The notes beneath the pieces were generated by a model. It searched no databases. It had not been told where the DNA came from and worked only from the letters and a program-made list of their open reading frames with translations. Below are positions 6,017 through 58,000 of a stretch of DNA of 64,000 bases, piece by piece. Origin of the DNA: Blasia pusilla. Taxonomy: Eukaryota. The stretch spans positions 13,826,001 through 13,890,000 of the forward strand of contig CM114271.1 in the NCBI GenBank assembly GCA_050084515.1, written 5' to 3'. A program made the position numbers and the translations under genes. Positions within the stretch are counted from its first letter, which is position 1; the number at the start of each line of letters is the position of its first letter.

Positions 6017-6776
6017 TAACGCAACCAATAATAGCGAGTGGGTGGTATGGGATAGATTTAAAGGGTGGGAGAATAAAATGACGTGTCAACTTGAGGTGGA
6101 GAATCGGAATTTATGGGCCGTTTGTAGGGGCTATAAATATTACAACTTCTAGTGAAATCTCTAAGAAATATATAATGTTAACTTCCATATTAAAGATAGA
6201 GTTTATAATTTCCTGAGTTTTTTCTTGAGACCATAAGATTTCCATTTAAACGTAGCCAGATTTTCCAGTACCAAATTTAATCTGTTTTTTAATACCATGA
6301 TTTTTTTATTGAAATGGCACGATCATACGGCACCTTAATGGTGAAATGTAATCACAAGATTAAAAAGGTAAAACAATTTTAAAGAACAAGGAAAAGGCCA
6401 AGAAGAAGCAACTAACATTCTGTCTCGTACCTCTATTGTTTTGAGCTTTGAAGGATATGTACATTTCGCGGCATTGTGCTCTTACGTCGATCGTCGATTT
6501 TGCTTGGCAAGTGCTTTGCCGACGGACATTCACTGCACGCGGGAGAGTGACAGCACCAAGGAGGATCAAAGCAGGTCAGTCACGAAAGATCGTTTAGCAG
6601 TTGACTGTGATGGCATGGATGACGATGAGATTTGATTTGGAAACACGGAATTGGAGAATGCCAGGAACAGATTTGTGAAGTCGCTGTACTTCCGGATGAC
6701 CTAAGGAGACTGGAGATTGTGTGGTGTATTATTAGGTCAGGTGCTGCAAGGATATTAGCGTGGATCGGGGGTGAAA

Positions 6777-31881: not shown

Positions 31882-32355
31882 TGTCGTGTGAATCCACATC
31901 ATCATACAACAGACATCGGTGATATACCATACTCACATACATACATAACATAGATGAGAGCATACACAAACACAAGTGTACCACAATTGAAATCCGTGAA
32001 AAACCTACTGTCATAAAACACGTATAGAATCACATACAATCGAGCCAAACCCACTCCACGACGGGAGAATCTAGGTTGAAGCTTGCGGGAACTATCATGG
32101 CCAAGAGCTCTACTCGCTACCAAGGCTAATTCCCAACGCAACAGGCTCAACTCAAAGAACTAATTGTTCTTTGAGTGCACTCCACGCTATATCCTCTAAC
32201 CTAAGAGCGGGCCCTATTGGAAAAGTCACCCTCAACTGAGTAACCCCCAACCCTATGTATGAAACCGCATCTCTACTTAGACACTACGGCCCTACATAAG
32301 GTATGGCCTCTACTAGCACACTATACTCTACGACATAATCCGTATGGTCATGATA
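31882..32355 (-). mobile_element. Solo A+B terminal unit of family B
   Basis: Near-identical to 41310-41783, with a perfect 4-bp TSD CCTT (31878-31881 / 32356-32359). Confidence 0.93.
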
Positions 32356-33719
32356 CCTTCTATTAAACCTTTGTGGCGTATACCCATCCCATCTATGGAT
32401 CCATGGGTGTGGATCCATAGTCGTTCATTGAAGCAACCACCTCTCCTCCTCCTTTGTACACATTCGCCATGCGTTGGGCATATGCGATTGCTTCATTGAT
32501 ATCCTTCGGTTTATCTTGAATCACTTCTTGATGCACCTTCCTCGTCAAACCTCTCTTGAATAGATCGAGGGCTTCTACCCCACTCATGTCGCGGATCTGT
32601 ATGTATAAGTCACGAAACTCTTCGATATAGTCCTCCACAATACCTTTTAGCTTCAATCGCCATAGTTTCATTCTAGCAGTGAGGATTGGTTCTACAGCTT
32701 GGAAATTTTGCAAAAGCCCTTGCTTCATTCCGCTCCTTGTGATTTGTTGACTTGTTTCAATTAAGTATCTCTCCCATCCTTGATACCATGTCAATGCTCG
32801 ATTGGTGAACTAAGATCTTACAACCATCCCTACTATACGATCATCAATGTTGAAAAGGGACAAATGGATTTCCATACAATTGATCCAACCCTCTAATATC
32901 CCTAAGACTTGACTTTCTTTGTACAATTCTACCTTGCATGTCTTTGTCATTTTCAATAGTAATGACGCTTGGGTATTCATCTCCATCACTCTTTGTGTTG
33001 CTTGGGCATCCAATGCTCGTGCCCATTAAATGCTCGTTTTTTATGCTCGTTCCCTTGATCTTTGACTATCACTTTAATATAAGGTCAAGATATACACCTG
33101 CCAATTTCGCATAATAAGGATTACAAAAGGCAATGTTGATGCAATGATTTCATCATAATACTCTTGGCCAAACTTCCTCTCCATAAACTCTCTATATGCT
33201 ATCTTAAGTCGACTAACCACATGAATTGTACATTAAAATTCATTCCCCCTATCTTGTTTAAAACAATATATAAATAGTGCAATCCCATACACTATATAAC
33301 AATAGGAAAGATCACTAGGAAGCGAGACTCCATCACTTGTGTCATGAAAACTTCACCAAAGTGATATACGAGGTATCTTGTGAACTAGTGTCTATCTACA
33401 TGTAAGAGTTTGATGGTGAACGGATTTAGAAATGGAAAATTAGCAGTCACTCTCACTTCCCCTTCATCCATTAGCTCCAAAACAATCCTTCTCCCTTGCT
33501 CTACTTGCAGCTCAATAGCTACTACCAGCCTCTAACAAACCTTTCTAACTCTTAAAATTGTATCGTTACTCGGTCATCCTTCCAAGAGGGATAATCCACT
33601 TCCATTGGGAAGAGTAAGCGTGCTCTGATACCATTGTAACTCTCGAGCTTAGAGAACCACTGTAGAGTTGCTCAAAGGTAGAATAACCCTCAAGGTCTCT
33701 CCTCTTCTTTTATATACTT

Positions 33720-36724: not shown

Positions 36725-37702
36725 TGTCACGACCCTCATAACCAAATAACACCAAATAGGCGCCAAGCGGAACATCAGAACTCAAGTGGACACACCGTAC
36801 AATGATCGCGCTTTGGAAAGGCTTTTGGAACGTCTCTTGGAAAAGTCCAAGAGACGAAACGCGAAATAGAGTTGTGCATTTCATGCATTAGTGGTCGCAA
36901 CCAAGAAACCTAGACCAAACGCGAGCCAAGACTTAAGATGAGTTGAGTCTTGGAAGGTTGGTTGCCATAGAGGTGAGAACCAATTTTGGAACACGAATAG
37001 CGTTTGGGGAATTTGAATGTATTTTGGACCATGAACTTTAGCCCCAAGATGAATTTGGGACAAATAATAGTACCTTGATAAGCTTATCTTGAAACGCTTC
37101 CAATGCACCAAAGATCTTAGCAAACGCATAAGTACAGACTGAGATATTGGCCAAAAATGACTGTGAGAGCAATCGGGTTGAGGGCCAATTGGAGAGGCCC
37201 AGGTGTCTTTCCCTAAATGTAGGGAACCCTGGAGATCCCCAGAAGAACTAGTAAGGGAGGAGTGTCTCCAAGATGTCTTGGAACACGAATTCCCACTTTG
37301 AGCACCAAATGGCGTCTCAGAGGTACGGGATGGAACGGGAGTTTAGCCTGGTAACTCGAAATCCAAACGTGATCCAAGAGAGTGGACTTTGTATGCCACA
37401 CTTGGATTCCGACCCAAGATTCCCTTTGTGCGAGTCTCGATTAGGGACTCATTAGATGTCCATCGGACTGTTAGAACCACCATGCGCGAAACGTCATTTG
37501 AGGTTTCTCAACCGACGAGAAAGTATGTCCCAAGTCTTTCGAGACTTGCTTGTGTTGTAAACCGCGAAACTAGGAAGGTTGAGCTTGATGAGAGACCGAG
37601 ACGAGAACTCGGAAAGTTAGCCCGCTGATTGATCCAAGACCCGACTAACTAGAGTGCGTATTTAGATGCAGATCAACTTTGAGAGCGTGACCTATTGAAC
37701 GT

Positions 37703-38931
37703 TGTCGTGTCGAGAGCCTTTCTTTGAGTAAGGGCGGGCCTTCTAGTTACGGCGTACGTGATCAATGCAAGGTGAACTCTCTAAGAAGTTCTCCTTTTTC
37801 AATAAAAAAATTATTATGTATACTCTCCATTCTCTTACGACAAGTATCACAAATGGAATTGTCGAGGCGATCACTTCTTCGTAACATCGGACCCTGAAAT
37901 TCTTAATTATAAAATCCCTATAAACTACTTTACATTTGTACACGAGGAAGATAGCACAACTAGTGTTAAATCCTACTTTAGTAGGCCTATTGACGTCCAT
38001 GGATCGCTATATAAGGACATACAAAGTACAATCCCATGTTCTTTCGTGTATGACGATAGGAAGAATCAACAGAGTTGGAGATTGCATGACCTGGTTCATT
38101 AACTTCTCCCCAAAGTGATAAACTAAATAGCAAGTGAACCAGTGCCTATCTACAAAGAGTACCTTGACATGGTAAGGATTGAGGAAATGAAAGTAGGACA
38201 CAACTCGTGCTCCATCTCTATTCATGCTTGAAAGACATTACCTACCCTCCTCAAGAATGGGCTTTGACGAAATTATTCTACCAAGAAGGGTAATCCACTC
38301 CTCTAAGGTGACAAGCTTCTCATCTCCACACATACCACACTCTAGAAACCTCTCGAAGAATAGATCATGATCAAGTTACTCTCCCAAGAAGGGTGATCCA
38401 CTCTCATTGGAAGAGCAAGCAATCTCAAAGCCATACACTTGAGAATGACACGAGAGACTCAAGATGTGAAATAGAAGGTGATGAACCCTTTCCTTGAAGG
38501 CCCCTCCTCTTTATATACTCATGAGGGATCCATAAGAGTACGAAATAGAGCTAATCTTATCTTGTGCCACATAACTACCTCTCAAGGCTTAGCCAATCAT
38601 ATTTTGACACAAGTAGATTTCCTCTTATCTCTTCAAAAATATTCTCTTTTATCCACTTGATATTTTCCAAATTACCCCAACTAACCTAGCCACCAACCAA
38701 GACTACTTTTACTTTTCATTAAAGCATCAACCTCACTACTTTACTTTTACAAAGTTATCTTTTATTTATTACCTCTTTTCTTAAAGTTGGGCCCACATAA
38801 AAGAGACACCATAAAGAGGTTTAAACATGGGAATTTTCTTTTCCTAAGCTAATTTACTTAATACTAATAAAACTCTATCTAACACTTAATGAGGAAAGAG
38901 TTTACACACTGGTTGATTTTACTATACGAAA
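37703..38931 (-). mobile_element. Solo LTR-like unit, family C, inside the family A 5' LTR
   Basis: TGTCGTGTCG...TATACGA(C>A)A termini with TSD ACGT/ACGC. Removing it restores GAACGCACGC as seen in the other family A LTRs. Near-identical to 43471-44744. Orientation is inferred. Confidence 0.88.
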
Positions 38932-39136: not shown

Positions 39137-40200
39137 ATGGCAACCAAGGGCGAAGAACCAAGGAAGCCGCAAGTCAAAGAAAAAAATCCGAGAGACGAAT
39201 CAATGACGAACCGTGAGCCAGAGGAGGAGACAGCAACTCCCAAAGTGCCGAGTCCCAGACATGAGGATGTTCCAAACGCAAATCTTTCCGTGGGGCCTTC
39301 GGCTCCAAACTCAAACGACCTGGCCTTTTATATCCAAATGATGGATTTGATGAAGGTGATGGTGGACCAGATGGCCAAACAAAGCAAGGTGATCGTAGAA
39401 CCCAAGTTGAATGGAGCCTCTAGTTCCAGAAAGAAGCTTTGTAAGACAAATTTTCCAATGCCATTCACAAGAATGGGGTATTCTCAAAAAGTGAGCGAGT
39501 TTCTAACGAAACTCAAACTTTATTTTGAAGCGCAAAAGGCAGATGAGCAAGACAACGTGATTGTAGCAGTCATGTTTCTGAAGGATCATGCTCTCTACTG
39601 ATGGACGGCTCACCTTAAAGAACATCTAGGCCATGGAAGAACTTTGAGTTGGGAAGATTTCAAGGGGTTGATTGGTAACCAATTCACTCCGGAATATCAA
39701 GAGTATCGCGATGGCATGGAGTTTATTAGGTTGTGCCAAAGCGGATCCCTTAGCGCTTATGTGTGAGAGTTCAGTGCACACATGAGCTCACTTTCCACAT
39801 ATGAGTTTACAAAGAAGATGATCTTCTTAAGTGGACTCAAACCGAGCGCCAAAAAGGCCCTCTTTCGTATGCATCACATTCCACCGATGTGCGCAGAACT
39901 TCTGAGGCTAGCGGAGCGGATAGGGGACGATGAAGTCCAAAACCAAAAACCCTTTGAGCAGAAAAGTTTTTCTAAGTTACCAAAAAACAAAGGGACATCC
40001 AAGAGGGTTTGGAATGGGGGTGAGTGCGACCACGAAGGGTCTCTTGCCCCAGCGGCGAAATGAGTGGAACTCTATGCAAAGCCAAGAGGGTCGCCGTTCT
40101 CAAAGTCAACAAATGCCAAAGTGATTTGTTACAATTGTGGCGAACCCGGGCATATGGCTAAGGAATGTGTGAAGCCCAAGGTTAGTAATTCAAGTATGAT
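39137..40200 (+). pseudogene. Family A gag (in-frame stops)
   Basis: Retrotransposon gag motifs FLKDHALY*W and LSWEDFK, and zinc knuckle CYNCGEPGHMAKEC. PPT AAGGAGGGGTGAG at 40285-40297. Confidence 0.85.
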
Positions 40201-42021
40201 TGCGTTTGTTGCTAAGCACTTATCCGCCGGCGGCTCGGAACTTAACATTAAAAAGGTTTGCTTTGATGAGGACATCAACCTTCTAAGGAGGGGTGAGTGT
40301 CGCAACCCTCATAACCAAACAACACCAAATAGGCGCCAAGCAGAACATGAGAACTCACGTGGACTCACCCTGCGATGATCGCCCTTTGGAAAGGCTTTTG
40401 GAACGTCTCTTGGAAAAGTCCAAGAGATGAAATGCGGGACAGAGTTGTGCATTTCATGCATTAGTGGTTGCAACCATGAAACCTAGACCAAACACGAGCC
40501 AAGACTTGAGATGAGTTGAGTCTTGGAAGGTTGGTTGCCAAAGAGGTGAGAACCAATTTTGGAACGCGACTAGCGTTTGGGGAATTTGAATGTGTTTTGG
40601 ACCATGAAGTTTAGCCCCAAGATTAATTTGGGACAAATAAGAGTGTGTTGGTAAGCTTATCTTGAAACGCCTCCAACGCACCAAAGATCTCAGCAAACGC
40701 ATAAGTACAGACTGAGATATTGGCCGAAAATGATTATGAGAGCAATCGAGTTGAGGGTCAATTGGTGAGGCCCGGGTGTCTTTCCCTAAATGTGGGGAAC
40801 CCTGGAGATTCCCAGAAGAACTAGTAAGGGAGGAGTGTCTCCAAGATGTCTTGGAACACAAATCCCCACTTTGAGCATCAAACGGCGTTTCACAGGCACG
40901 GGATGGAACGGGAATCTGGCGTTGGAACTCAAAACCCAAACGTGATCCAAGGGAGTGGACTTTGTACGCCACACTTGGATTCCAACCCAAGATTCACTTT
41001 GTGCGAGTCTCGGTTAGGGACTCATTGGATGTCCATTGGACAGTTGGAACCGCGAGGCGCGAAACGCCGTTTGACGTTCTTGAACCAACTAGAAAGTCTG
41101 TCCCAAGTCTTTCAAGACTTGCCTGTATTATAAACTGTGAAACTAGGAAAATTGAGCTTGATGAGAGGCCCAGATGAGAACTCAAAAAGTTAGCCCGTTG
41201 ATTGATCCAAGACTCAACTAACCAGAGTGCGTGTTTGGATGCAGACCAATATTGAGAGCGTGATCTACCGAACGCACGCTTCCGCAACAACAAAAATTAA
41301 GGTTCAAGGTGTCGTGTGAATCCACATCGTCATACAACATACATCGCTGACATACCATACTCACATACATACATAATATAGACGAGAGCATACACAAACA
41401 CAAGTGTACCACAATTGAAATCCGTGAAAGACCTACTGTCATAAAACACGTATAGAATCACATACAATCGAGCCAAACCCACTCCACGATGGGAGAATCC
41501 AGGTTGAAGCTTGCGAGAACCACCATAGCCAAGAGCTCTACTCACTACCAAGGCTAACTCCCAACGCAATAGGCTCAACTAAAAGAACTAACTGTTCTTT
41601 GAGTGCACTCCACACTATATCCCCCAACCTAAGAGCGGGCCCTAGTGGAAAAGTCACCCTCAACTGAGTAACCCCCAACCCTATGTATGAAACCGCATCT
41701 CTACCTAGACACTACGGCCCTACATAAGGTATGGCCTCTACTAGCACACTATACTCTACGACAGAATCCGTATGGTCATGACAACTGTCGTGCGAATCCA
41801 CATCATCATACAACATACATCGCTGACATAAGCATCCAAAAACACAAGTTTACCACAACTCGCCCCCTTAACTAGCGGTTAGGTCCCTCTAACTCCCAGG
41901 TAGCCATATACATCTACTACATGCTTGGATGCACGAATCAGAAGGCCGGGTGTTAGGTTGCCCCATCGTTAGTCGCACATCAGTAATCCATATCATGCAA
42001 AGATCAAGTCATCTACCTCTC

Positions 42022-43470
42022 CTAAGTACATCGAGGACAAACCCACCTTCTAGTAGAAACAACTTCCATACATGGAGTTAAACACATCATGTGCCAACCC
42101 CTAGAACACTGGTCACACACAAACATACGGGCTGCGTTACCAGCAGACCCACACAACATGCACCTCAAGCTAGCACGTATCATGGCTAAGCTTGGGTCAA
42201 CAGTACCATCCACATTTGGAAGATGACATGGCGCACAATTACGCACATGGTCCTTCCAAACAACTCCATCACGACCCTCCAACATGAGAATTCCATAATC
42301 TAACACCTCGCGCACTTGTAAAATAGTGCGGCCTGCCGTCACATCCAACGTTGTCGGTGTAATCTGATGCAAATAGACATAGTCCCCCACATGGAACCTA
42401 CAAATCAATGGTCGATAACCTCCACCTCGAATGGTTGCATACCGCAACGTATCCCTGTGTTGAGAAATGGCAAGATTCTCAAAGGCTGTTGGCATAACTC
42501 TCCGAAAAGAGCTCGCCGCACGAGAACACACTTTCATCCACATCTCTCGGGTCATCAAGGTTCACCACCTCACTAGACTCCGGACCAATTGTCTGGCGGC
42601 AAGTCCGGATCTCGCCGTATAATGTAAAAATAAGGTGAGAAGGAAGCCAAGGATGTTTGGCGACTGAACCTATACCCCATGGCTAACCATGGCAACTGAA
42701 TATCCTAGTCTCCAAGATGCCCCTTCTGTAGGCCATACTTGCGCAATGCCCTCTTCACCGTCTGAACCAAACCAAACCTCAGCCAAACCATCCGCCTCTG
42801 GATGATCTGGAGACGTGGTCTGATGATCAAACAACGCCTTGTCACACAAGACTTGAAACTATGTACCCTGGTCGGTCAGCACTTCAGCTGGTGCACCAAA
42901 ATGACTAAGCACTCTATCAAGTTACGCATACGCCGTTCCCTCACTTGCCTTGTCAGGTAATGCCACCAACTCAATCCACTTGGAGAAGTGCTCCACCATC
43001 ACCAACACATATCGATGATGTCGTACAGTCAACGGTTACGGTCCCGCAAAGTCCACACTCCAACGATAACCCAACCCCATAATAGCCAAGGGGTGTAACT
43101 GTGGTGTAGGGGCATTGAATGATACCCTCACCCAGTCACAAACCATACAATGTGACACCAACTGCTGCACCTGAGTATGCATGCCACGCCACCAATACTG
43201 ACCAAGGAGTAAGCTATACGTACGCTTTACCCCAAAATGTCCCAACTCCTCATGGGCATGTCGCACAATGCGCTCTCTCTGAGCCAAATGCGGCACTACT
43301 TGTACTCTACCATCCTCCCACACACAGAGAATATGTGTTCCCTCCAATCGATACCTCTTAGCACATTGAAGAACATGGTCTCGCTCCTTGGCACTCACTA
43401 TGCCTTGCACCCTACTGGTCCGTAGGAACTCCAACACCAAACCATCATCATGAATATCACGTTGATCCGT
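42022..43470 (-). pseudogene. Integrase (HHCC, DDE core, SH3-like C-terminus) with C-terminal PHD finger
   Basis: HAHEELGHFG...CMVC, WSVDFAGP, VEHFSKWIELVAL, VLTDQGT, FHVGDYVYL, and the C4HC3 motif CMLC...CDQC..GWHMMC...WVCPRC. Confidence 0.93.
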
Positions 43471-44744
43471 TGTCGTGTCGAGAGCCTTTCTTCGAGCAAG
43501 GGCGGGCCTTCTAGCTACGGTAGATGCGGTCGATGCAAGGTGAACTCTCTAAGAAGTTCTCCTTTTTCAATACAAAATTATGATGTACACTCTCCATTCT
43601 CTCACGAGAGGTATCACAAATGGAAGTGCTGAGGTGATCACTTCTTCGTAACATCGGATCCCAAAATTCCTAACTATAAAATCCCTATAAACTATTTTAC
43701 GCTTGTACACGAGGAAGATAGCACACCTAGTATTAAACCCTACTTGAGCAGGCCTATTGACATCCATGGGTCGCTATATAAGGACATACAAAGTACAATC
43801 CCATGTCCTTCCATACGTGACGATAGGAAGAATCATTGGAGTTGGAGATTACATGACCTGATTCATGAACGCCTCCCCAAAGTGATAAACTAAATATCGA
43901 GTGAACCAGTGTCTATCTACAAAGAGTACCTTGACATGGTATGGATTGAGGAAACGAAAGTCGGGCACAACTCGTGCTCCACCCCTATCCTTGCTTGACA
44001 GACATTCTTTTCTCTCCTCAAGAATGGATTTTGGCAGAATTATTCTCCCAAGAGGGGTAATCCACTCTCATTGGGGAAGTAACAAGCCAAAACATTCACT
44101 ATTTTAGTATGACTAAACTCCTCTGAGGTGACAAACCTCTCATCTCCCCACACACTTACACCACACTCTAGAAACCTCTCGAAGAATAGACCATGATCAA
44201 GTTACTCTCCCAAGAGGGGTGATGCACTCTCATTGGAAGAGCAAGCAATCCCAAAGCCATACACTCAAGAAAGACACGACAGACACAAGATGTGAAATAG
44301 AAGGTGATGAACCCTTGAAGGTCTCTCCTCTTTATATACTCACAAGGGATCCACAAGAGTACGAAATAGAGCTTATCTTATCTTGTGCCACATGGCTTCC
44401 TCTCAAGACTTAGCCAATCACATTTTGATACAAATAGATTTCCTCTTATCTCTTCCAAAATATCCTCTTTTACCCACTTGGTATTTTCCAAATTACCCCA
44501 ACTAACCTAGCCACCAACCAAGACTACTTTTTCTTTTCATTAAAGCAACGACTTTACTTTTATAAAGTCATCTTTTATTTATTACATCTTTTTCTAAAGT
44601 TGGGCCCGCATAAAAGAGGCACCATAAAGAGGTTTAAACATGGGGATTTCCTTTTCCTAAGCTAATTTACTTAATACTAATAAAACTCTATCTAACACTT
44701 AACGAGGAAAGAGTTTACACATTGGCTGATTTTACTATACGACA
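43471..44744 (-). mobile_element. Solo LTR-like unit, family C, inside family B pol
   Basis: TGTCGT...ACGACA termini with a perfect 4-bp TSD CCGT. Excision restores the in-frame GDGGTDQRD. Orientation is inferred. Confidence 0.92.
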
Positions 44745-44929
44745 CCGTACCACCATCTCCAACCTTAAGATCTGAAGGCTGGCCATCTACCCTATGATTG
44801 GAGTAAGATTTCATGTGGTCCTCCATACTAGAGTCCACCCCTAACCAACATAAAAAGGCGGATGCATGCCAACCTGGCACCACCTCCTCATCAACCTCGC
44901 CATGCCATCTAGCCCCAGTTGCATCCTCT

Positions 44930-46047
44930 TGGCTAGTACATGGGTTCCTACTCAACCCATTAGCATCCATGTTGGCAACTCCAGGTCTATATACCACCTG
45001 GAAGTCATACTCATGTAAGATAAGAGCCCATTGTGCAAGCTTCCCTGTAAGCTTGTCAGACTCCATCAACCACTTGAGCGGCTGGTGATCAGTAACAAGG
45101 GTAAACTGTATGCCAAACAAATAATACCCAAAGTGTGCCACAGCCCACACTACTGACAAACACTCTCCCTCATATGAACTGTAGCGCGACTCCGCTGCAT
45201 TATTCGAACGACTTGCATAGGCCATCATAAACTCCATGTGCTCATCATCATGTTGGGTCAACACCGCTCCAAGTCCCAACTTACTCCAATCAGCGTGTAA
45301 CTGAAATGGGCACCCTCTGATAGGTCTCCTCAAGATAGGGGCCGCCACCAACTGGGCCTTGAGCTCCACAAAAGCTCTCTCCTGATCATCTCCCTAGTGC
45401 CACTCCTGATCTGATTTCAACAATTGGTTCAAAGGCTTTGCCATAACACTAAATCCCTTCACATACCTCCGATAGTAGTTCGCCAATCCCATGAATGCCC
45501 GAACTCTACTCACATCTACCGAACGAGGAATAAGTGCAATAGCCTCCACCTTTGCTTGCTGAACTCCCAAACCACCTGGATAGATCACATGACCCAAGTA
45601 CTCAACATCCTCATGGAAGACCTTACACTTTCCTGGATGCAAACGTAGACCATGAGCTTTCAACCGCTCAAACACAATGTGCAAATGTATCTGATGCTCC
45701 TCCACCGTGTTACTTAACACCAAGATATCATCAATGTAATACCGAACAGAATCCAACCTTGTTAGGATCCTGTCCATCACTCTTTGAAACTCGGCAGGTG
45801 CATTCTTCAACCCAAAGGGTAAGAATTTCCACTGGTACAAACAATCCTTGCCATGAGAGTTGACACCCCAAAATGTTGTCTTGGCCTTGTCACTCTCTTG
45901 AATCGGCAACTGATGGTATCCTGCCCGAAGATCCAAAGTACTAAAAATCTTTGCCTGTCCCACCACATCAAAGATCTCCTCAGGTGTAGGCATGGCATAC
46001 CTATCAGCCTTGGTCTGCCGATTGATAGGACGGTAATCTCCACACAT
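44930..46047 (-). pseudogene. Gypsy reverse transcriptase and RNase H
   Basis: MCGDYRPIN, FSTLDLRAGYHQ, LPFGLKNAP and YIDDIL (RT). FQLHADWSKLGLGAVL, YSSYEGECL and LVTDHQPL (RNase H). Confidence 0.96.
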
Positions 46048-46489
46048 CCGCCTATTCGTATACCGGGTCCAACCAAAGCACCCAAATCCTTCATGCTAAA
46101 GGCAAAACAACTCCTATAAGCACGTAGGAACTGTGTCAAGCGTCGATTCTCACCTCCCGTAAGCTTGGGCCCAAGTAATGGCTCCCAAGTTTCCTCCACT
46201 GGCACACTAGAGAGAGAGGACGATGCCATTGGCTGCTACGCAACCCCCTCACAAGATAGTACACCCTTAGCTACACCATCACCTGAGCAAATAACTCCTC
46301 CACCATCATGAGCAACCAACTCCACATGCCCAGCCATTACATCCCATTTACTCCAAGGATGCAAAATAATACTCTCCTCGCCCCCATCCGATGCCTCTAC
46401 CGTCCCGGTAGCCATCGTGCTCATCACAAGGGGTGGAAGACCCACAAACATAGTCCGGAGTCGACGCTGCTCGGCCATACCAAGACTCA

Positions 46490-47430
46490 AAATCCAAGTC
46501 AAAAAATTCAAGTCCATGGCCTGACCCAACACATCACGTCGTGAAGCCTCAGAAATGGAAGCAACCGCTGTCACACCAGTAGCAAATCCCATCGCACGCT
46601 CTCTCTCATCAACGTTAGGCTCCACCAACTGTGGCACATGAGAATCCCATACAAGCTCGGGACCACCTTCCCTGTAGGCATGTGACAAGGGAAAACTCAA
46701 AAATGTGGGTAGTGCCATCCTAGGCTGGCCCACACGGTTCACCACTGCCATAGATGACTGATCAATAACCCTCACCACCTGAGAAAGTCGCCCAGTATCC
46801 AAGATACTATCCTTTGTAAGGCAAGGATCCGCTGCCTTTGCATCATATGCTCGACGTATAACCTCCTAGGCAACAAGTTTGTCCACCACAAGCGTGGGCG
46901 ATGTGCACGCTGAGCCAACTCACGCTGCATCCAACAACACCGCTGGTCCAATCCAAGACCGCACCTCATGAACACTCGCCATCATCCAGTTCCGAGTGTC
47001 ACCCAACAATGGAACATTCTCCAGAATGTAAGCCGGAGCACATGCCTGATGAACCTGAAGATGTCGTAACACCCGTAACATCTCCCAAAAAAATCGAGAC
47101 CTAGGATCGTGTAATCCCTCACCACGACCAGCACGTGTATGACCCTAACATGGCCGTCCAGCAATCACCAAATCCACAGGACCAACCCTCTCAAGGTCCT
47201 GCGCCCCCAACAATGCAATGTGTGACGGCAAAGCACGCTGGTACCCACGAATAGCTGATGGCGGCAACAACTCAGGATATCTCCGCATTAACTGACCAAT
47301 ATTTCGGGATGAGCCTCTCTGGGCTGTCTCATCTCGCTCCACATATACGTATCTCCGCACAGGAATAACGGTTTGCAACACTGCAGCCAAACCAGTGCTA
47401 ATCCCACCAAAGAGATCTAACACACAAATG
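46490..47430 (-). pseudogene. DNMT3-like C5 cytosine DNA methyltransferase domain in pol
   Basis: Motif I VLDLFGGIST, II YVYVERD, IV GPVDLVIAGRPC(Q>*)G, VI YILENVP, VIII LDAA*VGS/RAHRPRLWWTNL, IX ERERAMGF and X RRDVLGQAMD, in canonical order. Confidence 0.92.
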
Positions 47431-48018
47431 CCCTCCGGCGGATACTGCCATACAATAGGTGTAGTGGACTCCTACTTCTAGTGCCAACTGGACTAGAAGT
47501 AGGAGTCCGCCATGGGGCCTCCTCTTCCTCGTGAGGTATAACAGCCTCACACCAAGCCTCCTCCACTAGGCGATCAGCCTCTTGCCGTAGTGCACTGCCT
47601 GAACTCCAAAGTGGCACATCCAACAATGAGGATGCCACTACTGCAAAACTAGGGACTTCCTCTACCTCCTCATGCACAGGAGAATACATAGCATAAACAT
47701 TACTCTCCAAAAAATCTCCTCGCCAAGTGACTACTCCACTAAAACTAGCCACAGATGCTAACACCGTTGGGGAAGACCCTCCTGGTCGAGCTCCATAAAT
47801 AAATCTCACAGGAACTTGGCTCATACGTCCATCTCCGGACTGCCAACCAGGTCTATAAGACGTTGTCTCAGTCCAGTAATCCATCTGAAAACCCATATAG
47901 TAGCCAACTTCTGCTCCAACTGCTCAATCATGGCAGCCATAGCTGACTCTATCGTAGTGGTAGGGGTAGCCACCGTAGGCTCTCCAACCACTGGTCCACC
48001 TCTACCACCTCTACCACC

Positions 48019-49345
48019 TCAGCCTCTCGGAGCTACTCCACCACGGCCGCGGCTTGATCTCAACTCTGGATGAAGATCAAAGCAACGCTCTCGAGGATGA
48101 TCTGGTCTCCCGCAATGATCACACTGAGTTGGGGCCGACTGAGGCCCATCCTCCAAAGTCCGTCTCCCATCCTCTTGGGGACAAAACTTCCTAACATGAT
48201 CACCTCCACATGTCCAACATGATTGTCCTTGCTGCGGGGCAGCAAATGAAGGCAATGGTCTCTACACAAGTGTCCCTCTAGAACCTGACTGAGGTCGTGT
48301 GTACCCCCCATAACTCCCGCTACTACTACCACCACCACTACTACGAGACTGTGAGGTGGGCTGCTGAACACGAGAAGTAGTAGTTGTATCCCTACTGAAT
48401 GCAGATGTCACCACTCTCTCCTTCACAATGTTAAGCTCAATCTTCTCAGATAGAGCAAACACATGGGTCAATGTGGATGAATCATCACTCATAAGAGTAG
48501 CATCATGTACCCTGCGGCGCAACTCTCTGTCCAAGATCCCATACCAAAATTGACTGCTCGAGCCTCGATCACACCTGGGTAATCGAAATCAAGCGTCGCA
48601 TACGAGTGTATGCCTCACGAAGACTCTCACCAATCTTTCGCTCAAATTCCTGAAGACTCCTTAACTTCTCTGTCTTCACTCCCTGATAGTTCTTCTTCAA
48701 CCTCTTGAAGAACTCTGCAACCGGGCTGAACGATGGTGGGGCACTAGTACCTCCACTAGTACTCCCATTGGTACCTCCATGGGTACCTCCACTGATACCC
48801 CCGCTCCGGCTCATACTCGTACCACTCAACGTCGGGCTGGCTGGCATAGTAGGAGCACTACTACCAATACCACCATGGGTGATAGATACATAGCCTGGAG
48901 ACCAATATTGTCTCCACGCCTCAATCTCAGCAACATGGTCCTTCCTAAACTCATGGTAATCATCCATGGGTGGTCCCTCCAAGTGCTTAAACAACCCCTT
49001 CCAAGCCAGGAAGGGTGTAAACAACGTGGCGTTCCGCAACATCTCCATATCACACCACGTATCAAACTCATGCATGAAGTCCTCCAACTCAATGGTGCCC
49101 ACTGCACTCGAGTATCGACGTGGGCTCTTCATGGCCCCATATATCCCGTCCATGTCCCAAATCAATGGAGCTGCAACACTCGATAACAACGTAGAAGACT
49201 CGGTGTTTGGAACACCCTCGTCCTCCTCTTCATCAACCGTCGGAAGTGGAAAAGGTAGCCGATACCTCAATCCACTCCATGTGAAACCACCACTGTCCGC
49301 ACCACGATCCCCAACCAAACCACCAGACAACTCCGTGATGACCAA
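48019..49345 (-). pseudogene. Family B gag with two zinc knuckles (frameshifted)
   Basis: ORFs 48569-49345, 48262-48534 and 48019-48255. GESLREAYTRM, CWTCGGDHVRKFC and CDHCGRPDHPRERC. Confidence 0.88.
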
Positions 49346-51206
49346 CGCCGATGCCGTACCACCACCAAATTACCACCACTAAGTAACCAAGTGACGTTGA
49401 TGTCGCTGTACTATTCTAGCTCTACTAGCTATGAGTGTAGGCAACCTAACATGTCATCAACACAAGAAGCCTCCCACGGTCTATTGGTCATCACTCCAGC
49501 CTCACTACCGATAGCACACAGGAGTAACACTACTCTGGATATCAACGTCAACCCTAACAATGGGCGTGCAAGCAAGAAGCAACGATGGAGAGGATCCAAA
49601 CACAGGAAGTCCAACGACAACCCTCCAATCGCAAATGGAAATCAAGGTAACACAATCCACCAAACGTGGTGCCCCCTGAATCCACAGAACCCACCACACA
49701 ATTCTAACCCAATAGCTACTCCGTCGGGTCGATGATGTGCTAGTCGAACTCGCAGCACCTGAAAATATCATCTGCATGGAGAGGCTACACCGTACTATGC
49801 GCTAGAGGTCCATCAACCAAAAACTTGAGATGCATAAAGCGCCTAACACATCTCCAAACAGCACCAAATAAGCTACACCAGTGTGTACACAGGCATAGTT
49901 AAGAACTCTGCAATTAAGCGTCTTCCAGGCAGAATAGTTCAAAGATGGGTGACCAATTATGCAACACTCAAATCACAAATCCTGCAAAAACTGCCTCACG
50001 CCCAAGCAAGCAAGCTTGCTTGCTTGCTCCTTACTCCGCCTCTCACGCCCACTCGCCCTGAGCTACCACAAGTTGCCTCGAAGCCTCGAAGCCTCAAAAC
50101 GCCGAGAAATGCTCAAGACATGCCCCCTTCGCCACGCTTCTCCATGCTTCGCTATGGAGAGAGGCCCAACCAGGGCGCCCCCAACGGGATAGGCGTCTCC
50201 AACAACAGACGAGTCACCAACCAACCAGCCCCTCCGATTATTACTCCACAAATCCTCGACCAAAATTGAATCTGTTCCGACCAAAATTCAATTGACCACC
50301 ATAGTTATCTCTCCACAAAAAAATCAGCTACAACCAAGCTCTGTACTCCGAGCTAAAAATCAGACAAACTTGCTGTCCATACACCTCCAGAATCGCAAAT
50401 CCGGCAGCGCTTCCGCCCAGATTCATGCACGCAAAAATCCGCAACGCTCCACACACTCAAGCAGATAGATTCACATGAGATCACAATACAAATAGCAACA
50501 GGAACCGCTCACCCAATCTGAACTTCAACAGAGCTTCCGCACTCCAAGCTCTCCACATCAAAAAACCGTCGAACACGAACCATAATCTTCAATCCTTGAT
50601 AACTTCCAACTCCCTTGACAAAATTCGGCGATCTAAAACGCGTTGGAAAGATCTCAGCAAGGCGCTTCTTTCCCAATCAACCACGCACCAGATTCCCACC
50701 TCCAACATAGGCCACAAGCCACGAACATCCACGGCTGAGTACACAATCAGCCCTAACCAGATCCTACTGATCCACAATCGAAGCTACCATAGATCTACTC
50801 TAGTTCTTTGAGTGAAATCCATGAAAGACCTATTGTCATAAAACACGTATAGAATCACATACAATCGAGCCAAACCCACTCCACAATGGGAGAATCCAGG
50901 TCGAAGCTTGCGGGAACCACCATAGCCAAGAGCTCTACTCGCTACCAAGGCTAGTTCCCAACGCAACAAGCTCAACTAAAAGAACTAACTGTTCTTTGAG
51001 TGTTCTCCACACTATATCCCCCAACCTAAGAGCGGGCCCTACTGGAAAAGTCACCCTCAACTGAGTAACCCCCAACCCTATGTATGAAACCGCATCTCTA
51101 CCTAGACACTGCGGCCCTACATAAGGTATGGCCTCTACTAGCACACTATACTCTACGACATAATCCGTATGGTCATGACAAAGGAGAGTAGGCGCACGAC
51201 ACATAT

Positions 51207-51900: not shown

Positions 51901-54900
51901 ATTGTGAATTCTTAGAAAATTACAACACTAGATTTTGCTACTTATGGACAACATGGCTAGTTTCTTGTTTCTATTTTCTTCTCCTATAACTACTCTATTC
52001 TTTAGAATAGAGTAGTTTGAAGAATAGAGTAGTTATAGAAATGGCAATGAATGAAGGCTCATCACATTCTAAAGGTAAGAAGCAAGAAACTATAGTAGTT
52101 CCACCGATGTCCTACATGCAGCTAGTTCATCACGTAACATCCACTATCCACACAACAAATACAATTCTATCAAATGAAGATAACACCTCCATGCGCTAAG
52201 ATCATCACACACCATATCAGACCTCTCAAGTAAACATCAATTTCTTACTTCAACTTTTTGCTCCAACCCAACTCTACTAGTTGCCCAATACGTACCTACA
52301 AACTACATGGATTTTGCAAGCATGATACTTAGTGATGTACATAGCATCCAAGACAAACCTACGCCACGTCTTGTACAACCAACAGAGAATCAAATGAGGT
52401 TTTCTAATAACCTTGGCCTCGTCACTAAATTTTGGGAGAATGGAGTTACGAGCAAGTAGATTCAAGCCATCATAACCTAGGGCAGAGCATGGGATCAAAA
52501 GTTCTGTAATGTCAACAAAGATGCTCATGCCGCAAGTTCACTCTTCCCTACTACTCATGGTGTAAAATTCTCATTCTCTTCATTCCATCCATTTGCTACA
52601 GCTCAAATCTTTGATCTATTCCACTTCTATTTCCCTCGCTAGTTCCAAGTATGCAGAAAGAGGCTCTATGTTACACGAACATTGACTTCAAAGAGACATC
52701 AGTGATGTGCTCACAGGGGAATAGGCTGTTTATATCACTCTTGGTGGTATTTGCTTGGATCACCTTAGGTCCCTACAACACGAGTTCCATCTCCCAATCC
52801 ACATGGTTATTGACTTGTCTCCTAATAAAGCCTCCCATCTAATTAATAGGCTCAAACTTGCACACTCTAGCGGTGGACTCCCAAGTTTTACACCTGAGCA
52901 GGGTTACATCCCTCATGTCATCCCCAATGATTTTAAGGACATCGCTATTGCTGCCAATACATTGGATATTAGCACTGAGCGTTTAGGATTTGATTGTTCT
53001 ACTCATGTGACTTCACCGGCCAAAAGAAAATGCACCTAGGCTACTCACATGTAATTAGCTCTTTGCATCCTTCTCCCAATTCCTCTCTTCAATTTTGCTC
53101 ACATATTTGTCCTTCATGACATCTTTTCATGCACTTCAAACTCTTTCTTCTGCAACATAGCAGATGTTACTTTCTTCTCATGAATTCCTATTCCACATCA
53201 TAAATCTATGACATTCTTACACCTACACTCTTTTCTTTAGTGAGTATTACTACATTTCATTTCTTCATCATTTTTACTTCACAAATTTTGCTCTTCCTTA
53301 GTATTCATATCACTTAGTGCAACTAACATGTGTTTTGGACATTTTCGATACTCGCTTCATTGTACATTGTCTTTTTTTACTCATGCACCTACTTTCAACT
53401 TCTATACCTTTTCTTGCCTTCTATATACTAACAATTACTATACATCTTACACTTGTTCATGCGGCGACCATGGGCTCCATTTACATCTCTCTACTTCAGC
53501 AATGAGCAATCATACTTAGTTCCTGCAAAATTGTACCAGAAGACATTGCCGCAACTTGTGGAGGTTGAAGAACAACTTGGTACTCTCGAGATAAACATGG
53601 GACTACATGAGGAGCTAGTGTCATCTCTTTATGAAGAGATAGATATCCTCAAATCTCATGTTTCTATTCATAGAGATAGATTGAAAGAGGTTTGTGATAT
53701 TCAACCATGTATGACCACAATCTACATTTCAATCATTTTCCTTTTCAATCATTGTGTTCTTCACTTTCTGTTCTTCAAATTACCGTTAATTACACACAAC
53801 ACATAAGCTTCATTTTTCATACTTTCATGATTGTTCTTCCAAAATTCTTCCACATTTCCACCGGCATCTATACTTCCCTGAGGAGGAAATCCCAAAATGG
53901 ATCCTAGTGGACATAAGCGAGAAGCTTGTTTTTTTTTTTCAAATGTACCAGTAAGGTACCCGTGCAATGCACGGAAAATAAAAAAGTGTTTGAAAAACTT
54001 TTGTTAATGAAGGGATTAATGATGCTGCACACAAATTCAAACTTTTTTCTTCCTGCCCATAACACGTGAAACATTTTTTTTCTTGCCCAATTACCACATG
54101 TCAATAAGACCTTAAGAAAAAGGAGTCAATAATAGTTTTTTAAAATTAGATATAAATTTTCAAAAAAAATGATTTAAATTTTAAGTATAATTTACAATTT
54201 TTAAAATCTTAGAAGAGTAAAAAAATTTCACCTTTAAATAACACCCATCTCCCCTGAATAATTTCACTCCTCCGTAGAAGCTCAAACAAGAACTATTCTT
54301 TCCCTTCCATTCTTCCCAACAAAATAACATTCACTAACCAAAATCTTAGCTAATTTTAATTAATGAAATCATTTTATTTTTCCATTAAAATTCATTTTAA
54401 TTTTCCAAAATATACCATGCAAATTAATAAAATTATTTTTTAAAATGATATGCTACTTACTTATAATAAATTTTAAATATGACTTTTTTTCTAGAATCTC
54501 AAAAGAATAACAATATTTCACTATTCTTAGTAATTAAAATCCTCCATTCAAATTTAAATGATATCCTAATACACTAAGTAATTTTATTTTTCCATAAAAT
54601 TAAAAAAAATCTACTCCTCTATTAACTTTTTATTTCCTTTTTTTCATCAAATATGAAAAGAGAAAAAAAATCTAAAATTTTGGTTATTAATTATATTTTA
54701 TTAATATTTATAATCACCCAATATAATCTTAAATTAATTATTATTCTATGTATTTCATTCAAATTCTTTCTATTTCTAGAGTGTTGCCTATTCCCTAGCA
54801 TATTTCTTATTATGCATATGTGGTCATATAACGAAGGGGTTCGTGCAGCGGCCATCTCCGACCTTGTGGCGTGCTAGCCGTACACTAGAGATATACTCTC

Positions 54901-55057
54901 GGGACGACAATTTTTCTTTTGCCTTGCACAGAAAAAGCGGTACTACGTTCTTCTTCTCTTCTTGTGCACCGTTTTGCGCGCAACTGTACAGCAGCGGTGG
55001 GGTGATTGGAGAGGTCGGGTTGATCCCGAGCCTCGCAGTGGTTTTGTGGAGAGGCGT

Positions 55058-58000
55058 ATGCTCGCGTGCAAGAGAATAATTGCCCGGTCTGTTCATTCGT
55101 TGCCGGTGGTGCTACTCGGAACGACGACGGTTTCAATGGGGTTTCACGTGTCTCCGACCACCCGGATTGGGTTTATCGGAGCGGGTCAAATGGCAGAAGC
55201 CATTGCTCGTGGATTGGTAGACAAGGGAGTTATTCCTCCTGAGCAGATGACAACTTCGGATGTCAGTTTAAGCCGCTGTAAGGTGTTCGAAGGTTTCGGT
55301 GTTTCTTCGCGGTCCTCCAATGTTGAGGTAAGCAAGCCACATGTAAGAATTTGACATCCTGGGGTAGAAGGGCGCATGGTGACCGGATGAGTACCAAAAT
55401 TTTCATTCTTTGTACTCTCTCTCTCTCCGTGGACAATAATCGCTTCATTCATTTATTCTCTTACATAGCTGCTAGGAAACGTCTGGCCCTCTGCAAGCAT
55501 TCAAAGCCAAAGGTCCAGGGTTTAGGGTTTATGGTAGACAAAGGATACCAGATGCTGGTGTAATTCTCCGATTCAGTGCACCGAGTGAAGTCTAGAGCGG
55601 ACGACTTGACAACACGATGATTCGAAGATGAGGGGGTCGTATGATTCGACTGAAACTGAACTCAGCTACTCTTTTTTAACGACGGTCGAACTTGGCTCGT
55701 CGGAACTGATTAGACCGGTCTGGTCGGAGGGAGATAAGTCTTCTCGAGGCAGTCGCTAAAGTTGCAATCAAGTCGAAGCATTCGACCGTGAAAGAAATTC
55801 AGACGCTTTGTTTTACCTGCCGATAAGCTGGTTAATTGGAACACCGAGGCCGGTGGGGTTAGAGGCAATTTTCCGTAGGCAATTGCAGAAACTGCTGGCA
55901 ATGTTTTGAAGATCAGCAGAACAACACTAATGAGAGCGCTAGCGAGCGTAGCTTCAAAAGGATCCAGAGGTGAATTATGACAGACATCGTAGGAGAAGTA
56001 TACCGTGGCCGGAATGTTCTTCATCGCAGCCCCACCATTTCAAGAATGCGCCAACGAGCGGATGTTGATTTGTGGTGAAAGTAATTAATCAGCCATCAAA
56101 AGCGTGATCATAGGGATTCTCTGGTTTCACAACCACCGCCAGAAAAAGGAATTGGATTGGCGTCATCGAGTCCACTTGAGGATTCCTGAGGTTGCAAAAT
56201 CAGCATGTCATTTCCGTCCCATGGAGCGAGTGTTCATCGCATTCTCCGCAACAACCGCTGATGGAATCCATGTAGAAGACGACCAGCTTAACACGTGGAT
56301 TTGCACACATTAATTGATGTGAAGTGTCTTTTCCGGTGTTTGCATCATTCACAACTCCGTCATGAGTGGGGGGTACTTAAACCATGTTGCTGGTTCGTGG
56401 GGTGACTTGACGTTAGACATTCAGATAATGCACTGACTTGCAGCTTTTCTTTGCAGGTGGCTGAGAATAGCAACGTTATCATCGTTGCTGTGAAACCACA
56501 ATATGGTGAGTCTGATTGTGTTGTTTCAAAGTCATGATCCTACAGGTCAAGTTTCCTAAGGAAGGCGTTTGCAGTTAAAGGAATGAACATTTCGTCACCA
56601 TTACTAATGCAGCTCACGGTCCAGCTAACCAAATTAAACAATCACGGTTTGCTAGCTGTTTCTGTACAAGCTTGTCCTGTTCTCTTTCAATGTGCCTCCT
56701 TTTTATTGCAAACATTGAACGTCACAACTCATAATCAATGGTCTTGGGAAACGAGTTCTGAGTCTGAGATTGGATTTTTGGCATCTCCGTAGTGCAGACA
56801 GTGCTCAATGATGCACGACCAAAGCTAACGAAGGATCATCTGTTAGTATCCATAGCTGCTGGCGTCAAGTTAAAAGATCTGCAGGTTTGGAATCACTTGC
56901 GTGAGATTGTCATTTTGTTGGGTCTGAGAGTACTGTTTGTTGCATTTTTTCTTCTTATGCACACTTACTCACGGTTGAGCATTCTCAAGTCTAGTGGGCA
57001 ACAACGGAGTAGGGAAATTTGTGTGCTGTTGTGGATGCTAATGCTAGTTTATGACAACAGTAATGATGGCTTTCATAGAAAATAGCTATAGAATTTGCTT
57101 TGTAGAGAATGGAACTTGAGTTTCTGTGGTGGTTGCAGACCTGGGCAGGGCATGCCAGAGTGGTGAGGGTGATGCCAAACACTCCTTGCCTTGTCGGTGA
57201 AACTGCTGCAGGTTTATCTCTACTTCTGTAAAGCAATATTCAATGGAGATATGTACTCGGGTGTTTTGAAAATGTAAACCTTCCATTTGAAAGGTTGTCT
57301 GTTAGTTGAAAGAGATGGAGTCAAACTGGGCGGATCAGAAAGTTTGACAGGTTTCCAGTAACCAAGATTTATATCTCATGTTGAAGAACTTCTTTTTACC
57401 AGAGTTTTATGGCTCAGGAGTGGACTGGGATCGCCATCCTTAAATGGAAAAATTAGAACTCATGCATAGGATTAGCAGCATGAACGAGAGATAATCGAGA
57501 TATAATCATCATTGTGACTTCTCTCTTAAGCAGTGGACACATACTTAAGAGCTGGGCCGTCAGCAAACCTGGGCATTTCAGACTTGTAACTATCAGCAAA
57601 ATGTTTTACAGGAGGATGGGGACAGTAGCCATCAACTCTTGGAGAAATGCCATTTCCTACTTGTGCATTTTTTAGCAGAAAAGTTTTCTGTTCAATGATT
57701 TTGTCATCTGGTGATCTGTTTGGGCAGCCTTAAGTGTGGGTACACTAGCTACTCCAGAGGATGTGGAACTGGTACAGGGGCTGTTCTCTGCGCTCGGCAA
57801 GATCCATGTTGTCGACGAGCACTTATTGAATGCGGTGACAGGCCTCAGGTACAGTAACACTTGGTTCTGAAAAAGTTTTCCTTATGTTCTAATAAACCAG
57901 CTCCTCTCTTATCAATTCTTTACAAAGTCTTAAAATACGCCTAGCAGCTGAAGTGTAACTTGGCATATTTCTGTACAACACCTGGAAATTGGAAGAATCA

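Follow-up and report, generated by a model that had tools for sequence, protein, structure and literature searches.

We analyzed a stretch of 64,000 nucleotides from Blasia pusilla (contig CM114271.1 of assembly GCA_050084515.1, positions 13,826,001 to 13,890,000 of the forward strand), here called the window, whose first letter is position 1. A DNA cytosine methyltransferase (DNMT) sequence of the DNMT3 type sits inside a decayed Ty3/gypsy long terminal repeat (LTR) retrotransposon of 9.8 kb, which occupies positions 41416-51181 on the minus strand. With high confidence we regard this element as a decayed member of a family whose gag-pol carries a DNMT3-type methyltransferase between the protease and the reverse transcriptase (RT) and a PHD finger at the C-terminus of the integrase. 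The copy in the window is dead and capable of none of the functions which are proposed below. Elements of the same kind are numerous, conserved and transcribed in liverworts and mosses, among them Marchantia polymorpha.

Six-frame translation and stop-to-stop open reading frames (ORFs) reveal an intronless and non-permuted C5 cytosine methyltransferase reading frame at 46236-47471 on the minus strand. The domain proper extends from about 47471 to about 46440 and is somewhat wider than the region 46490-47430 delimited in an earlier note on this DNA; the open frame continues to 46236. All six methyltransferase motif strings which that note had read from the pol strand are indeed found on the minus strand and in order. 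LDLFGGISTG (motif I) and GPVDLVIAGRPC (motif IV) lie in the ORF 47145-47471, and ILENVP (motif VI) together with LLDAA follows in the same frame in the ORF 46920-47144. AHRPRLWWTNL (motif VIII) is found in a separate frame (ORF 46772-46981), and ERERAMGF and RRDVLGQAM are again in the first frame (ORF 46236-46865). The motifs I, IV, VI, VIII, IX and X are in canonical order in the window copy, with motif VIII frame-shifted. In this enzyme family the motifs are named I (FxGxG), IV (Pro-Cys), VI (Glu-Asn-Val) and VIII to X.

For the database comparisons the window DNMT was translated through its stops with an X at each stop (sequence P0001). P0001 matches the Pfam domain PF00145 with 29.9 bits (E = 5e-7, gathering cut-off 22), a match which lies far beyond chance; this profile search had been proposed in the earlier note as a check. 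Scanned singly, only one of the four DNMT fragments was matched in Pfam, with 16.7 bits and thus under the cut-off. Among the PDB chains P0001 finds DNMT3A at E of about 9e-7, colinear from motif I to motif X. A single tblastn match in an ungapped frame covers the whole domain, so that it contains no introns, as had been claimed. The window DNMT is 72% identical to residues 870-1210 of a Marchantia protein (P0092).

The lesions of the window copy are two stops and two frame changes, and the copy had been judged inactive on these grounds before. An in-frame TAG (47145-47147, minus strand; X109 of P0001) stands immediately after the catalytic Pro-Cys. The second lesion (46866-46922, minus strand; X184 and X202) consists of a TGA at 46920-46922 after LLDAA and of about 17 codons (about 46866-46919, with motif VIII) which are put out of frame by two compensating one-base frame changes. 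A third read-through stop (46866-46868) falls within this out-of-frame stretch, and tblastn matches the motif VIII region in a second frame (46918-46802).

To which kind of methyltransferase does the domain belong? A profile built from the domains of five intact natural relatives (A2) was run against all PDB sequences. It finds DNMT3A, DNMT3B and DNMT3C at about 1e-18 (about 70 bits), DRM at E = 1.7e-8 (37 bits), HhaI at E = 6e-7 (32 bits) and DNMT2 at E of about 2e-6 (about 30 bits), and no DNMT1 or chromomethylase (CMT) chain at E <= 0.01. An AlphaFold model of an intact relative (L005), calculated with a 25-sequence alignment, has a pLDDT of 91.9 and a pTM of 0.91. With Foldseek all listed top matches of this model are DNMT3A, B or C (E of about 3e-19 and TM of about 0.8 for the target) at 20-23% sequence identity; the ESM Atlas yields only a generic cluster named 'C-5 methylase, Streptophyta'. 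The matches listed in the homolog searches, including one with a DNMT-only alignment, contain no named host DNMT3, CMT or MET1 and a single DRM1 (E = 1e-5).

The domain thus shares with animal DNMT3A/3B/3C the order of the motifs and finds in them its best sequence and structure matches. In contrast to animal DNMT3A and B, which carry PWWP and ADD domains, it is embedded in a polyprotein, and a Pfam scan of the window and the relatives shows no PWWP or ADD N-terminal to the catalytic domain, that is, only PF00145, retrotransposon domains and a distant C-terminal PHD finger. It is also about 50 residues longer than the animal domain (341 versus about 285), mostly between motifs VIII and IX. DRM is DNMT3-derived and circularly permuted, whereas the element domain is not permuted; the alignment with DRM is limited to motifs I-IV of the query, which pair with the C-terminal part of the DRM chain. 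The earlier assignment as DNMT3-type and not permuted like DRM therefore holds, as the motif order is colinear with DNMT3A and the best PDB and Foldseek matches are DNMT3A/B/C.

The surrounding element is ordered gag-CCHC-protease-DNMT-RT-RNaseH-integrase-PHD and shows the direct LTRs and the succession of gag, protease, RT, RNase H and integrase which characterize Ty3/gypsy elements. Its parts all lie on the minus strand. The 5' LTR (50813-51181, 369 bp, with TG...CA ends) and its 369-bp partner, the 3' LTR (41416-41784), are 95.9% identical over 369 bp without gaps in blastn, with a Kimura two-parameter distance of 0.042 from 12 transitions and 3 transversions. A capsid-like gag ORF (48569-49369) gives a weak Retrotrans_gag match of 14.2 bits, below the cut-off, and is 66% identical to residues 1-186 of Marchantia P0092. 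Two gag CCHC zinc knuckles (48019-48261) are recognized as CX2CX4HX4C strings in the ORF translation; with tblastn the CCHC part of P0092 matches 48061-48252 at 66%.

Downstream of the knuckles a C-terminal remnant of the protease and a linker (47417-47932) are left, with a deletion junction at the upstream edge (about 47896-47932). Residues 195-412 of P0092 match 48552-47896 and residues 714-851 match 47932-47519 (tblastn), so that residues from about 412 to 714 are missing in the window. These about 300 deleted residues include the catalytic motif of the protease (LLDSGA, at residue 638 of P0092), and intact relatives carry a protease at the position which is deleted here. The earlier placement of the DNMT between gag and RT is right in that the domain is inside gag-pol, but the precise site is between protease and RT; the catalytic half of the protease is deleted in the window copy.

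The RT (45394-46095) and the RNase H (44692-45393) score 112 bits with RVT_1 and 111.5 bits with RT_RNaseH. On the N-terminal side of the RT about 58 residues are deleted near 46060, where residues 740-799 of the relative P0099 have no counterpart. Between RNase H and integrase lies a nested foreign repeat insertion of 1278 bp (43467-44744, strand not assigned), which is 88-90% similar to window positions 37700-38929 and across which the adjacent residues 1140 and 1139 of P0099 adjoin in tblastn. The integrase with its H2C2 zinc domain and core (42723-43548; Integrase_H2C2, 57.4 bits) is 76% identical to the rve part of the Sphagnum fallax protein P0107. The PHD finger (42022-42183; PF00628, 33.2 bits, cut-off 24) is located at the C-terminal end of the integrase ORF.

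This arrangement recurs elsewhere. P0001 has at least 90 protein relatives of similar length and at least 33 longer ones, of which the best are 64-75% identical, and their PF00145 scores are 27-49 bits. Among the matches listed about 27 are from Marchantia polymorpha, 5 from Calypogeia fissa, 6 from four Sphagnum species, 1 from Riccia sorocarpa and 1 from Closterium. The named best relatives in this set are from liverworts or mosses only; the named outliers are the distant protein of the charophyte Closterium and an entry which bears the label of a bacterial genome bin. In Marchantia, P0092 (1278 aa) carries gag, CCHC, protease and DNMT in one frame, and P0099 unites DNMT, RT and RNase H in a single protein. 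Family members in which the DNMT is in frame with gag/protease or with RT/RNaseH are P0092, P0099, P0170, L037 and L053. In the distant Closterium protein, CCHC, protease and DNMT follow one another as they do here.

A scan of metagenome contigs returned 277 relatives from 600 pattern matches, and 80 of these loci were kept for analysis. All 36 kept loci of at least 9 kb show the gene order of the window wherever the parts are present. This order is common to three lineages, whose DNMTs have identities of about 70%, about 49% and 36-44% with the Marchantia domain. In all lineages of the elements the integrase is followed by a PHD finger (PF00628).

The window taken by itself would also be compatible with a one-off capture of a host DNMT3 fragment by a single copy, or with mere adjacency, as its DNMT is broken and a second DNMT was not found in the 64 kb. 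The domain recurs, however, at the same place in dozens of proteins of four bryophyte genera and in the 277 metagenome stretches, in other family members it forms one frame with gag/protease or RT, and it gives ratios of nonsynonymous to synonymous substitutions (dN/dS) of 0.21-0.33. Restriction to this copy, which the earlier note had named as the outcome that would speak against its proposal, is not what we see. Recurrence, in-frame fusion and purifying selection lead us to reject a one-off capture, to which we assign a negligible probability.

In a tree of 50 DNMT domains, which contains element-borne domains only and was obtained by a quick search with midpoint rooting and with several long branches, the window copy falls within a clade of 20 (SH-aLRT 97) whose named members are liverworts and mosses only. 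This clade holds host-specific clusters of Calypogeia, Marchantia and Sphagnum, of which that of Sphagnum is, with weak support (80), the sister group of the window copy. Judged from the element's own protein, a bryophyte host is likely.

We also observed a second architecture, RT-RNaseH-DNMT-integrase-PHD, in which the DNMT follows the RNase H (P0123, P0125-P0130 and others). Of 148 new cluster representatives among the best-listed matches about 95 have this second architecture and about 7 the order of the window, and the second-architecture DNMTs form tree groups separate from the window's clade. These representatives were found with a profile of 956 positions (alignment A1) which included RT and RNase H columns; its 140,761 matches at E <= 0.001 are mostly ordinary Gypsy polyproteins and uninformative on the DNMT, and the 150 listed representatives were used only for sorting domain orders, with a separate DNMT profile. 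The bacterial entry (P0036) is named 'DNA cytosine methyltransferase' and comes from a genome bin of Candidatus Obscuribacterales. It is near-identical to a metagenome locus (L039), and in the tree it falls among the DNMTs of retrotransposons; probably it is a eukaryotic contig binned into a bacterial genome.

Selection on the DNMT was assessed with a Nei-Gojobori script and codons anchored to the Marchantia domain. Against 25 diverged copies from the same clade, at dS 0.68-0.92, the window DNMT has dN/dS of 0.21-0.33, values which are upper bounds as the about 17 out-of-frame codons are included and both partners are partly decayed; another 19 window comparisons were saturated. For RT-RNaseH the same pairs give 0.11-0.29. 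Judged from these ratios the DNMT is under purifying selection comparable to that on RT-RNaseH. Within the clade (770 pairs) dN/dS is 0.61 at dS 0.05-0.2 (477 pairs), 0.50 at dS 0.2-0.5 (254 pairs) and 0.25 at dS 0.5-1 (39 pairs). Such a fall is expected when a transposing lineage is under constraint and its single copies, once inserted, decay neutrally. Altogether 139 stops are found in the DNMTs, and 96 of them are one base away from the L005 codon, 77 by C>T and 12 by G>A.

These data bear on the possibility that the bryophyte DNMT ORFs have been domesticated from a retrotransposon as host genes and no longer belong to mobile elements. In Marchantia, Calypogeia and Sphagnum the annotation treats them as ordinary proteins, and they show purifying selection. 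On the other hand, the copies are flanked by LTRs, several are present even within the 64-kb window, and most contain many stops. In the tree near-identical copies form bursts according to host genus, and selection is weaker among close copies, as in transposing lineages. Domestication is therefore very unlikely.

Copies of the family are transcribed. We used two stranded RNA runs whose species label is that of the DNA run with the largest share (0.49) of the window's sampled words. They contain 4854 and 5143 reads with at least 88% identity to the window, and nearly all of these are 90-99% alike. Only 42 and 35 reads are at least 99% alike, thus the RNA comes from sibling copies and not from the window copy. 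First mates on the plus strand outnumber those on the minus strand about 5- to 700-fold, varying by bin and run. In the DNMT bins the depth is about 49-83 on the plus versus 0.2-0.7 on the minus strand in one run and about 40-53 versus 0-1.1 in the other. Given the usual library type, RNA of the element's sense strand covers the DNMT.

Position 43466 is joined to 44745 in RNA reads as well as in DNA contigs, and at 46057/46059 RNA reads leave the window sequence as loose ends. Hence there are sibling copies without the nested insert and with the RT sequence that is lost here. A further joint, 42494-44775, skips 2280 bases with nine other letters between; it is seen in the RNA runs only (16 and 31 reads) and in no DNA contig, and may represent a deleted sibling copy or a processed transcript.

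What could the methyltransferase do for the element? We suggest the following steps for intact copies. The DNMT would be made as part of Gag-Pol and would for this reason be packaged in the virus-like particle together with RT and integrase, and it would be catalytically active. The enzyme would then methylate the new cDNA of the element, or else the copy just integrated together with what surrounds it. The PHD finger could steer integration by reading the state of histone tails. A new insertion would so arrive already marked, which would lessen the harm to the host and let the lineage persist. Methylation of the element's own cDNA or of the target site, also raised in the earlier note, is the hypothesis put forward by de Mendoza et al. 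2018 for an algal element (PMC5890265). We prefer this scheme of cDNA or fresh-insertion methylation and PHD-steered integration as a functional reading, and hold it tentatively, with odds somewhat below even.

The catalytic part of the scheme is consistent with the conservation of the motifs. They are invariant or nearly so in 15 and in 25 aligned relatives, and G20, C105, E148, N149, E286-R287-E288 and G292 are invariant in 25 sequences. A divergent lineage (L044-L080, for instance L053:10007-10951) keeps the window's gene order, and its DNMT is under purifying selection, with dN/dS of 0.11-0.40; here Gly-Trp-Glu-Cys and Glu-Asn-Thr replace Gly-Trp-Pro-Cys and Glu-Asn-Val, in about 24 copies each.

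This divergent lineage leads to a different proposal, namely that the domain has a non-catalytic role, as a DNMT3L-like scaffold or decoy which binds host DNMT3, DNA or chromatin, or that it acts on RNA. Replacement of the Pro of Pro-Cys and of the Val of Glu-Asn-Val in a related clade which is nevertheless constrained would fit such a role. So would the yeast assay of the Klebsormidium Gypsy-DNMT3 domain, the sole assay of such a domain in print, in which no methylation was detected, a result that the authors themselves call inconclusive in PMC5890265. Against this, every residue by which an active C5 methyltransferase is defined, that is, the motif I glycines, the Pro and the catalytic Cys, Glu-Asn-Val and motifs VIII-X, is conserved in the window's clade and in clade B, and even the variant clade retains the catalytic Cys. 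The modelled fold, moreover, matches active DNMT3A/B and not DNMT3L alone. We consider a non-catalytic role improbable.

Several further points weigh, together with that yeast result, against our preferred reading of an element which methylates its own cDNA or insertions. The variant motifs of the constrained divergent clade would leave room for a non-catalytic or altered role. Intact, stop-free DNMTs are rare, with 2 in 32 full-length copies of the window's clade and 1 in 34 copies of the divergent clade. The CpG observed/expected ratio is 0.61 for the element and 0.63 for the window and gives no special sign of self-methylation. The RNA reads could stem from defective copies or from read-through transcription, and the strand call presupposes the library type. 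As to the copy itself, it has no target-site duplication, as all five flanking bases differ between the LTRs, and the 106 bp past the 3' LTR recur at 31882-31987. An origin of the LTRs from one insertion is therefore doubtful; the two LTRs may derive from different insertions and the copy may be recombinant or rearranged.

Retrotransposons that encode methyltransferases are known from dinoflagellates and from one charophyte alga (PMC5890265). The closest described system is KnitGypsy-Dnmt3 of Klebsormidium nitens, which according to the main text of that paper (de Mendoza et al. 2018) has an intronless and non-rearranged DNMT3 domain in the Gypsy Pol frame, is multi-copy, conserves the key residues and has Ka/Ks < 0.2. 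The later literature names the group 'streptophyte Gypsy-DNMT3' (PMC12344493, 2025; bioRxiv 2026.05.21.726589). The elements described here share with it the in-frame Pol DNMT3, the absence of introns, purifying selection (here 0.21-0.33) and a streptophyte host. They differ in the host, as Klebsormidium is a charophyte alga and the family here belongs to land plants, the bryophytes. They differ also in the repeats, since the algal element is arranged as in DIRS according to the figure legend in PMC5890265 and direct LTRs with TG..CA ends are found here. A PHD finger follows the integrase here, whereas the word PHD is absent from the text of PMC5890265. No Klebsormidium protein is among the homolog matches listed.

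The dinoflagellate systems SymbioDIRS-Dnmt3 and SymbioLINE-Dnmt likewise encode C5 methyltransferases on retrotransposons, and for the DIRS-type SymbioDIRS-Dnmt3 de novo CG methylation was shown in yeast (PMC5890265). These belong to other retrotransposon classes, tyrosine-recombinase DIRS and LINE, and are, according to PMC5890265, independent captures. A parallel to the PHD finger is offered by the chromoviruses, which are also Ty3/gypsy elements. Both have a histone-reader module at the C-terminus of the integrase, a chromodomain in the chromoviruses and a PHD finger (PF00628) and no chromodomain in the element here. Chromodomains steer integration, according to literature cited in bioRxiv 2026.05.21.726589.

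Full-text searches of the literature, supplements and subscription papers aside, brought up no account of retrotransposons with a DNMT in bryophytes or in any other land plant. The novelty is smaller than the earlier note had supposed, as the kind of element is already known as 'streptophyte Gypsy-DNMT3'. New in comparison with the published account of the algal element are the bryophyte hosts, the ordinary direct LTRs and the conserved PHD finger. Public protein sets already contain dozens of members from bryophytes which have gone unnoticed.

The window contains further pieces of the family. A truncated second copy (3654-6016, plus strand) comprises 5' LTR, leader and the start of gag; it is 90.2% identical over 2375 bp to 51184-48856, and its gag is 80% identical to P0092. 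A third fragment (1329-3609, minus strand) with integrase and PHD is matched by P0123 and P0107 in tblastn, its PHD being located at 1329-1466. A further LTR copy was found by blastn at 31988-32353 (strand not given). It is part of a duplication in which 31882-32353 and 41310-41781, that is, an LTR copy and the 106 bp beyond it, are 94.9% identical over 472 bp. Together with the lack of a target-site duplication, the duplicated LTR with its 106 bp points to recombination or to a variant leader.

Other repeats and genes are present as well. A 2.2-kb repeat (36725-38929) is matched in two pieces, the nested insert (43468-44742) and 40298-41274, and the latter is found shortly outside the 3' LTR of the element. 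Positions 39767-40378 encode a different gag, which has a CCHC knuckle, and positions 32396-32809 (minus strand) a Ty3 capsid-like gag ORF of a further element (34 bits). Two stretches on the plus strand are probable exons of host genes, 6759-7178 with UPF0172 (80 bits) and 54878-55351 with the N-terminal NADP-binding part of an F420_oxidored-type reductase (28.7 bits).

Some consequences follow for annotation and experiment. Counts of 'DNMT3' genes in bryophytes will be inflated by such elements, and one bacterial genome bin already has such a protein under a bacterial name. The question of what purpose the enzyme serves moves to tractable organisms, including the genetic model Marchantia polymorpha. 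The constant pairing of DNMT and PHD finger suggests a transposon-borne reader-writer toolkit.

A far-reaching possibility, which we think unlikely, is that a Ty3/gypsy lineage with a writer (DNMT3) and a reader (PHD) predates the split of mosses and liverworts and is still transcribed, and that its methyltransferase is active de novo. It would mark its own insertions and, through dozens of expressed copies, add measurably to the methylome of bryophytes such as Marchantia and Sphagnum. If this is true, part of the 'host' de novo methylation in early land plants would be encoded by transposons.

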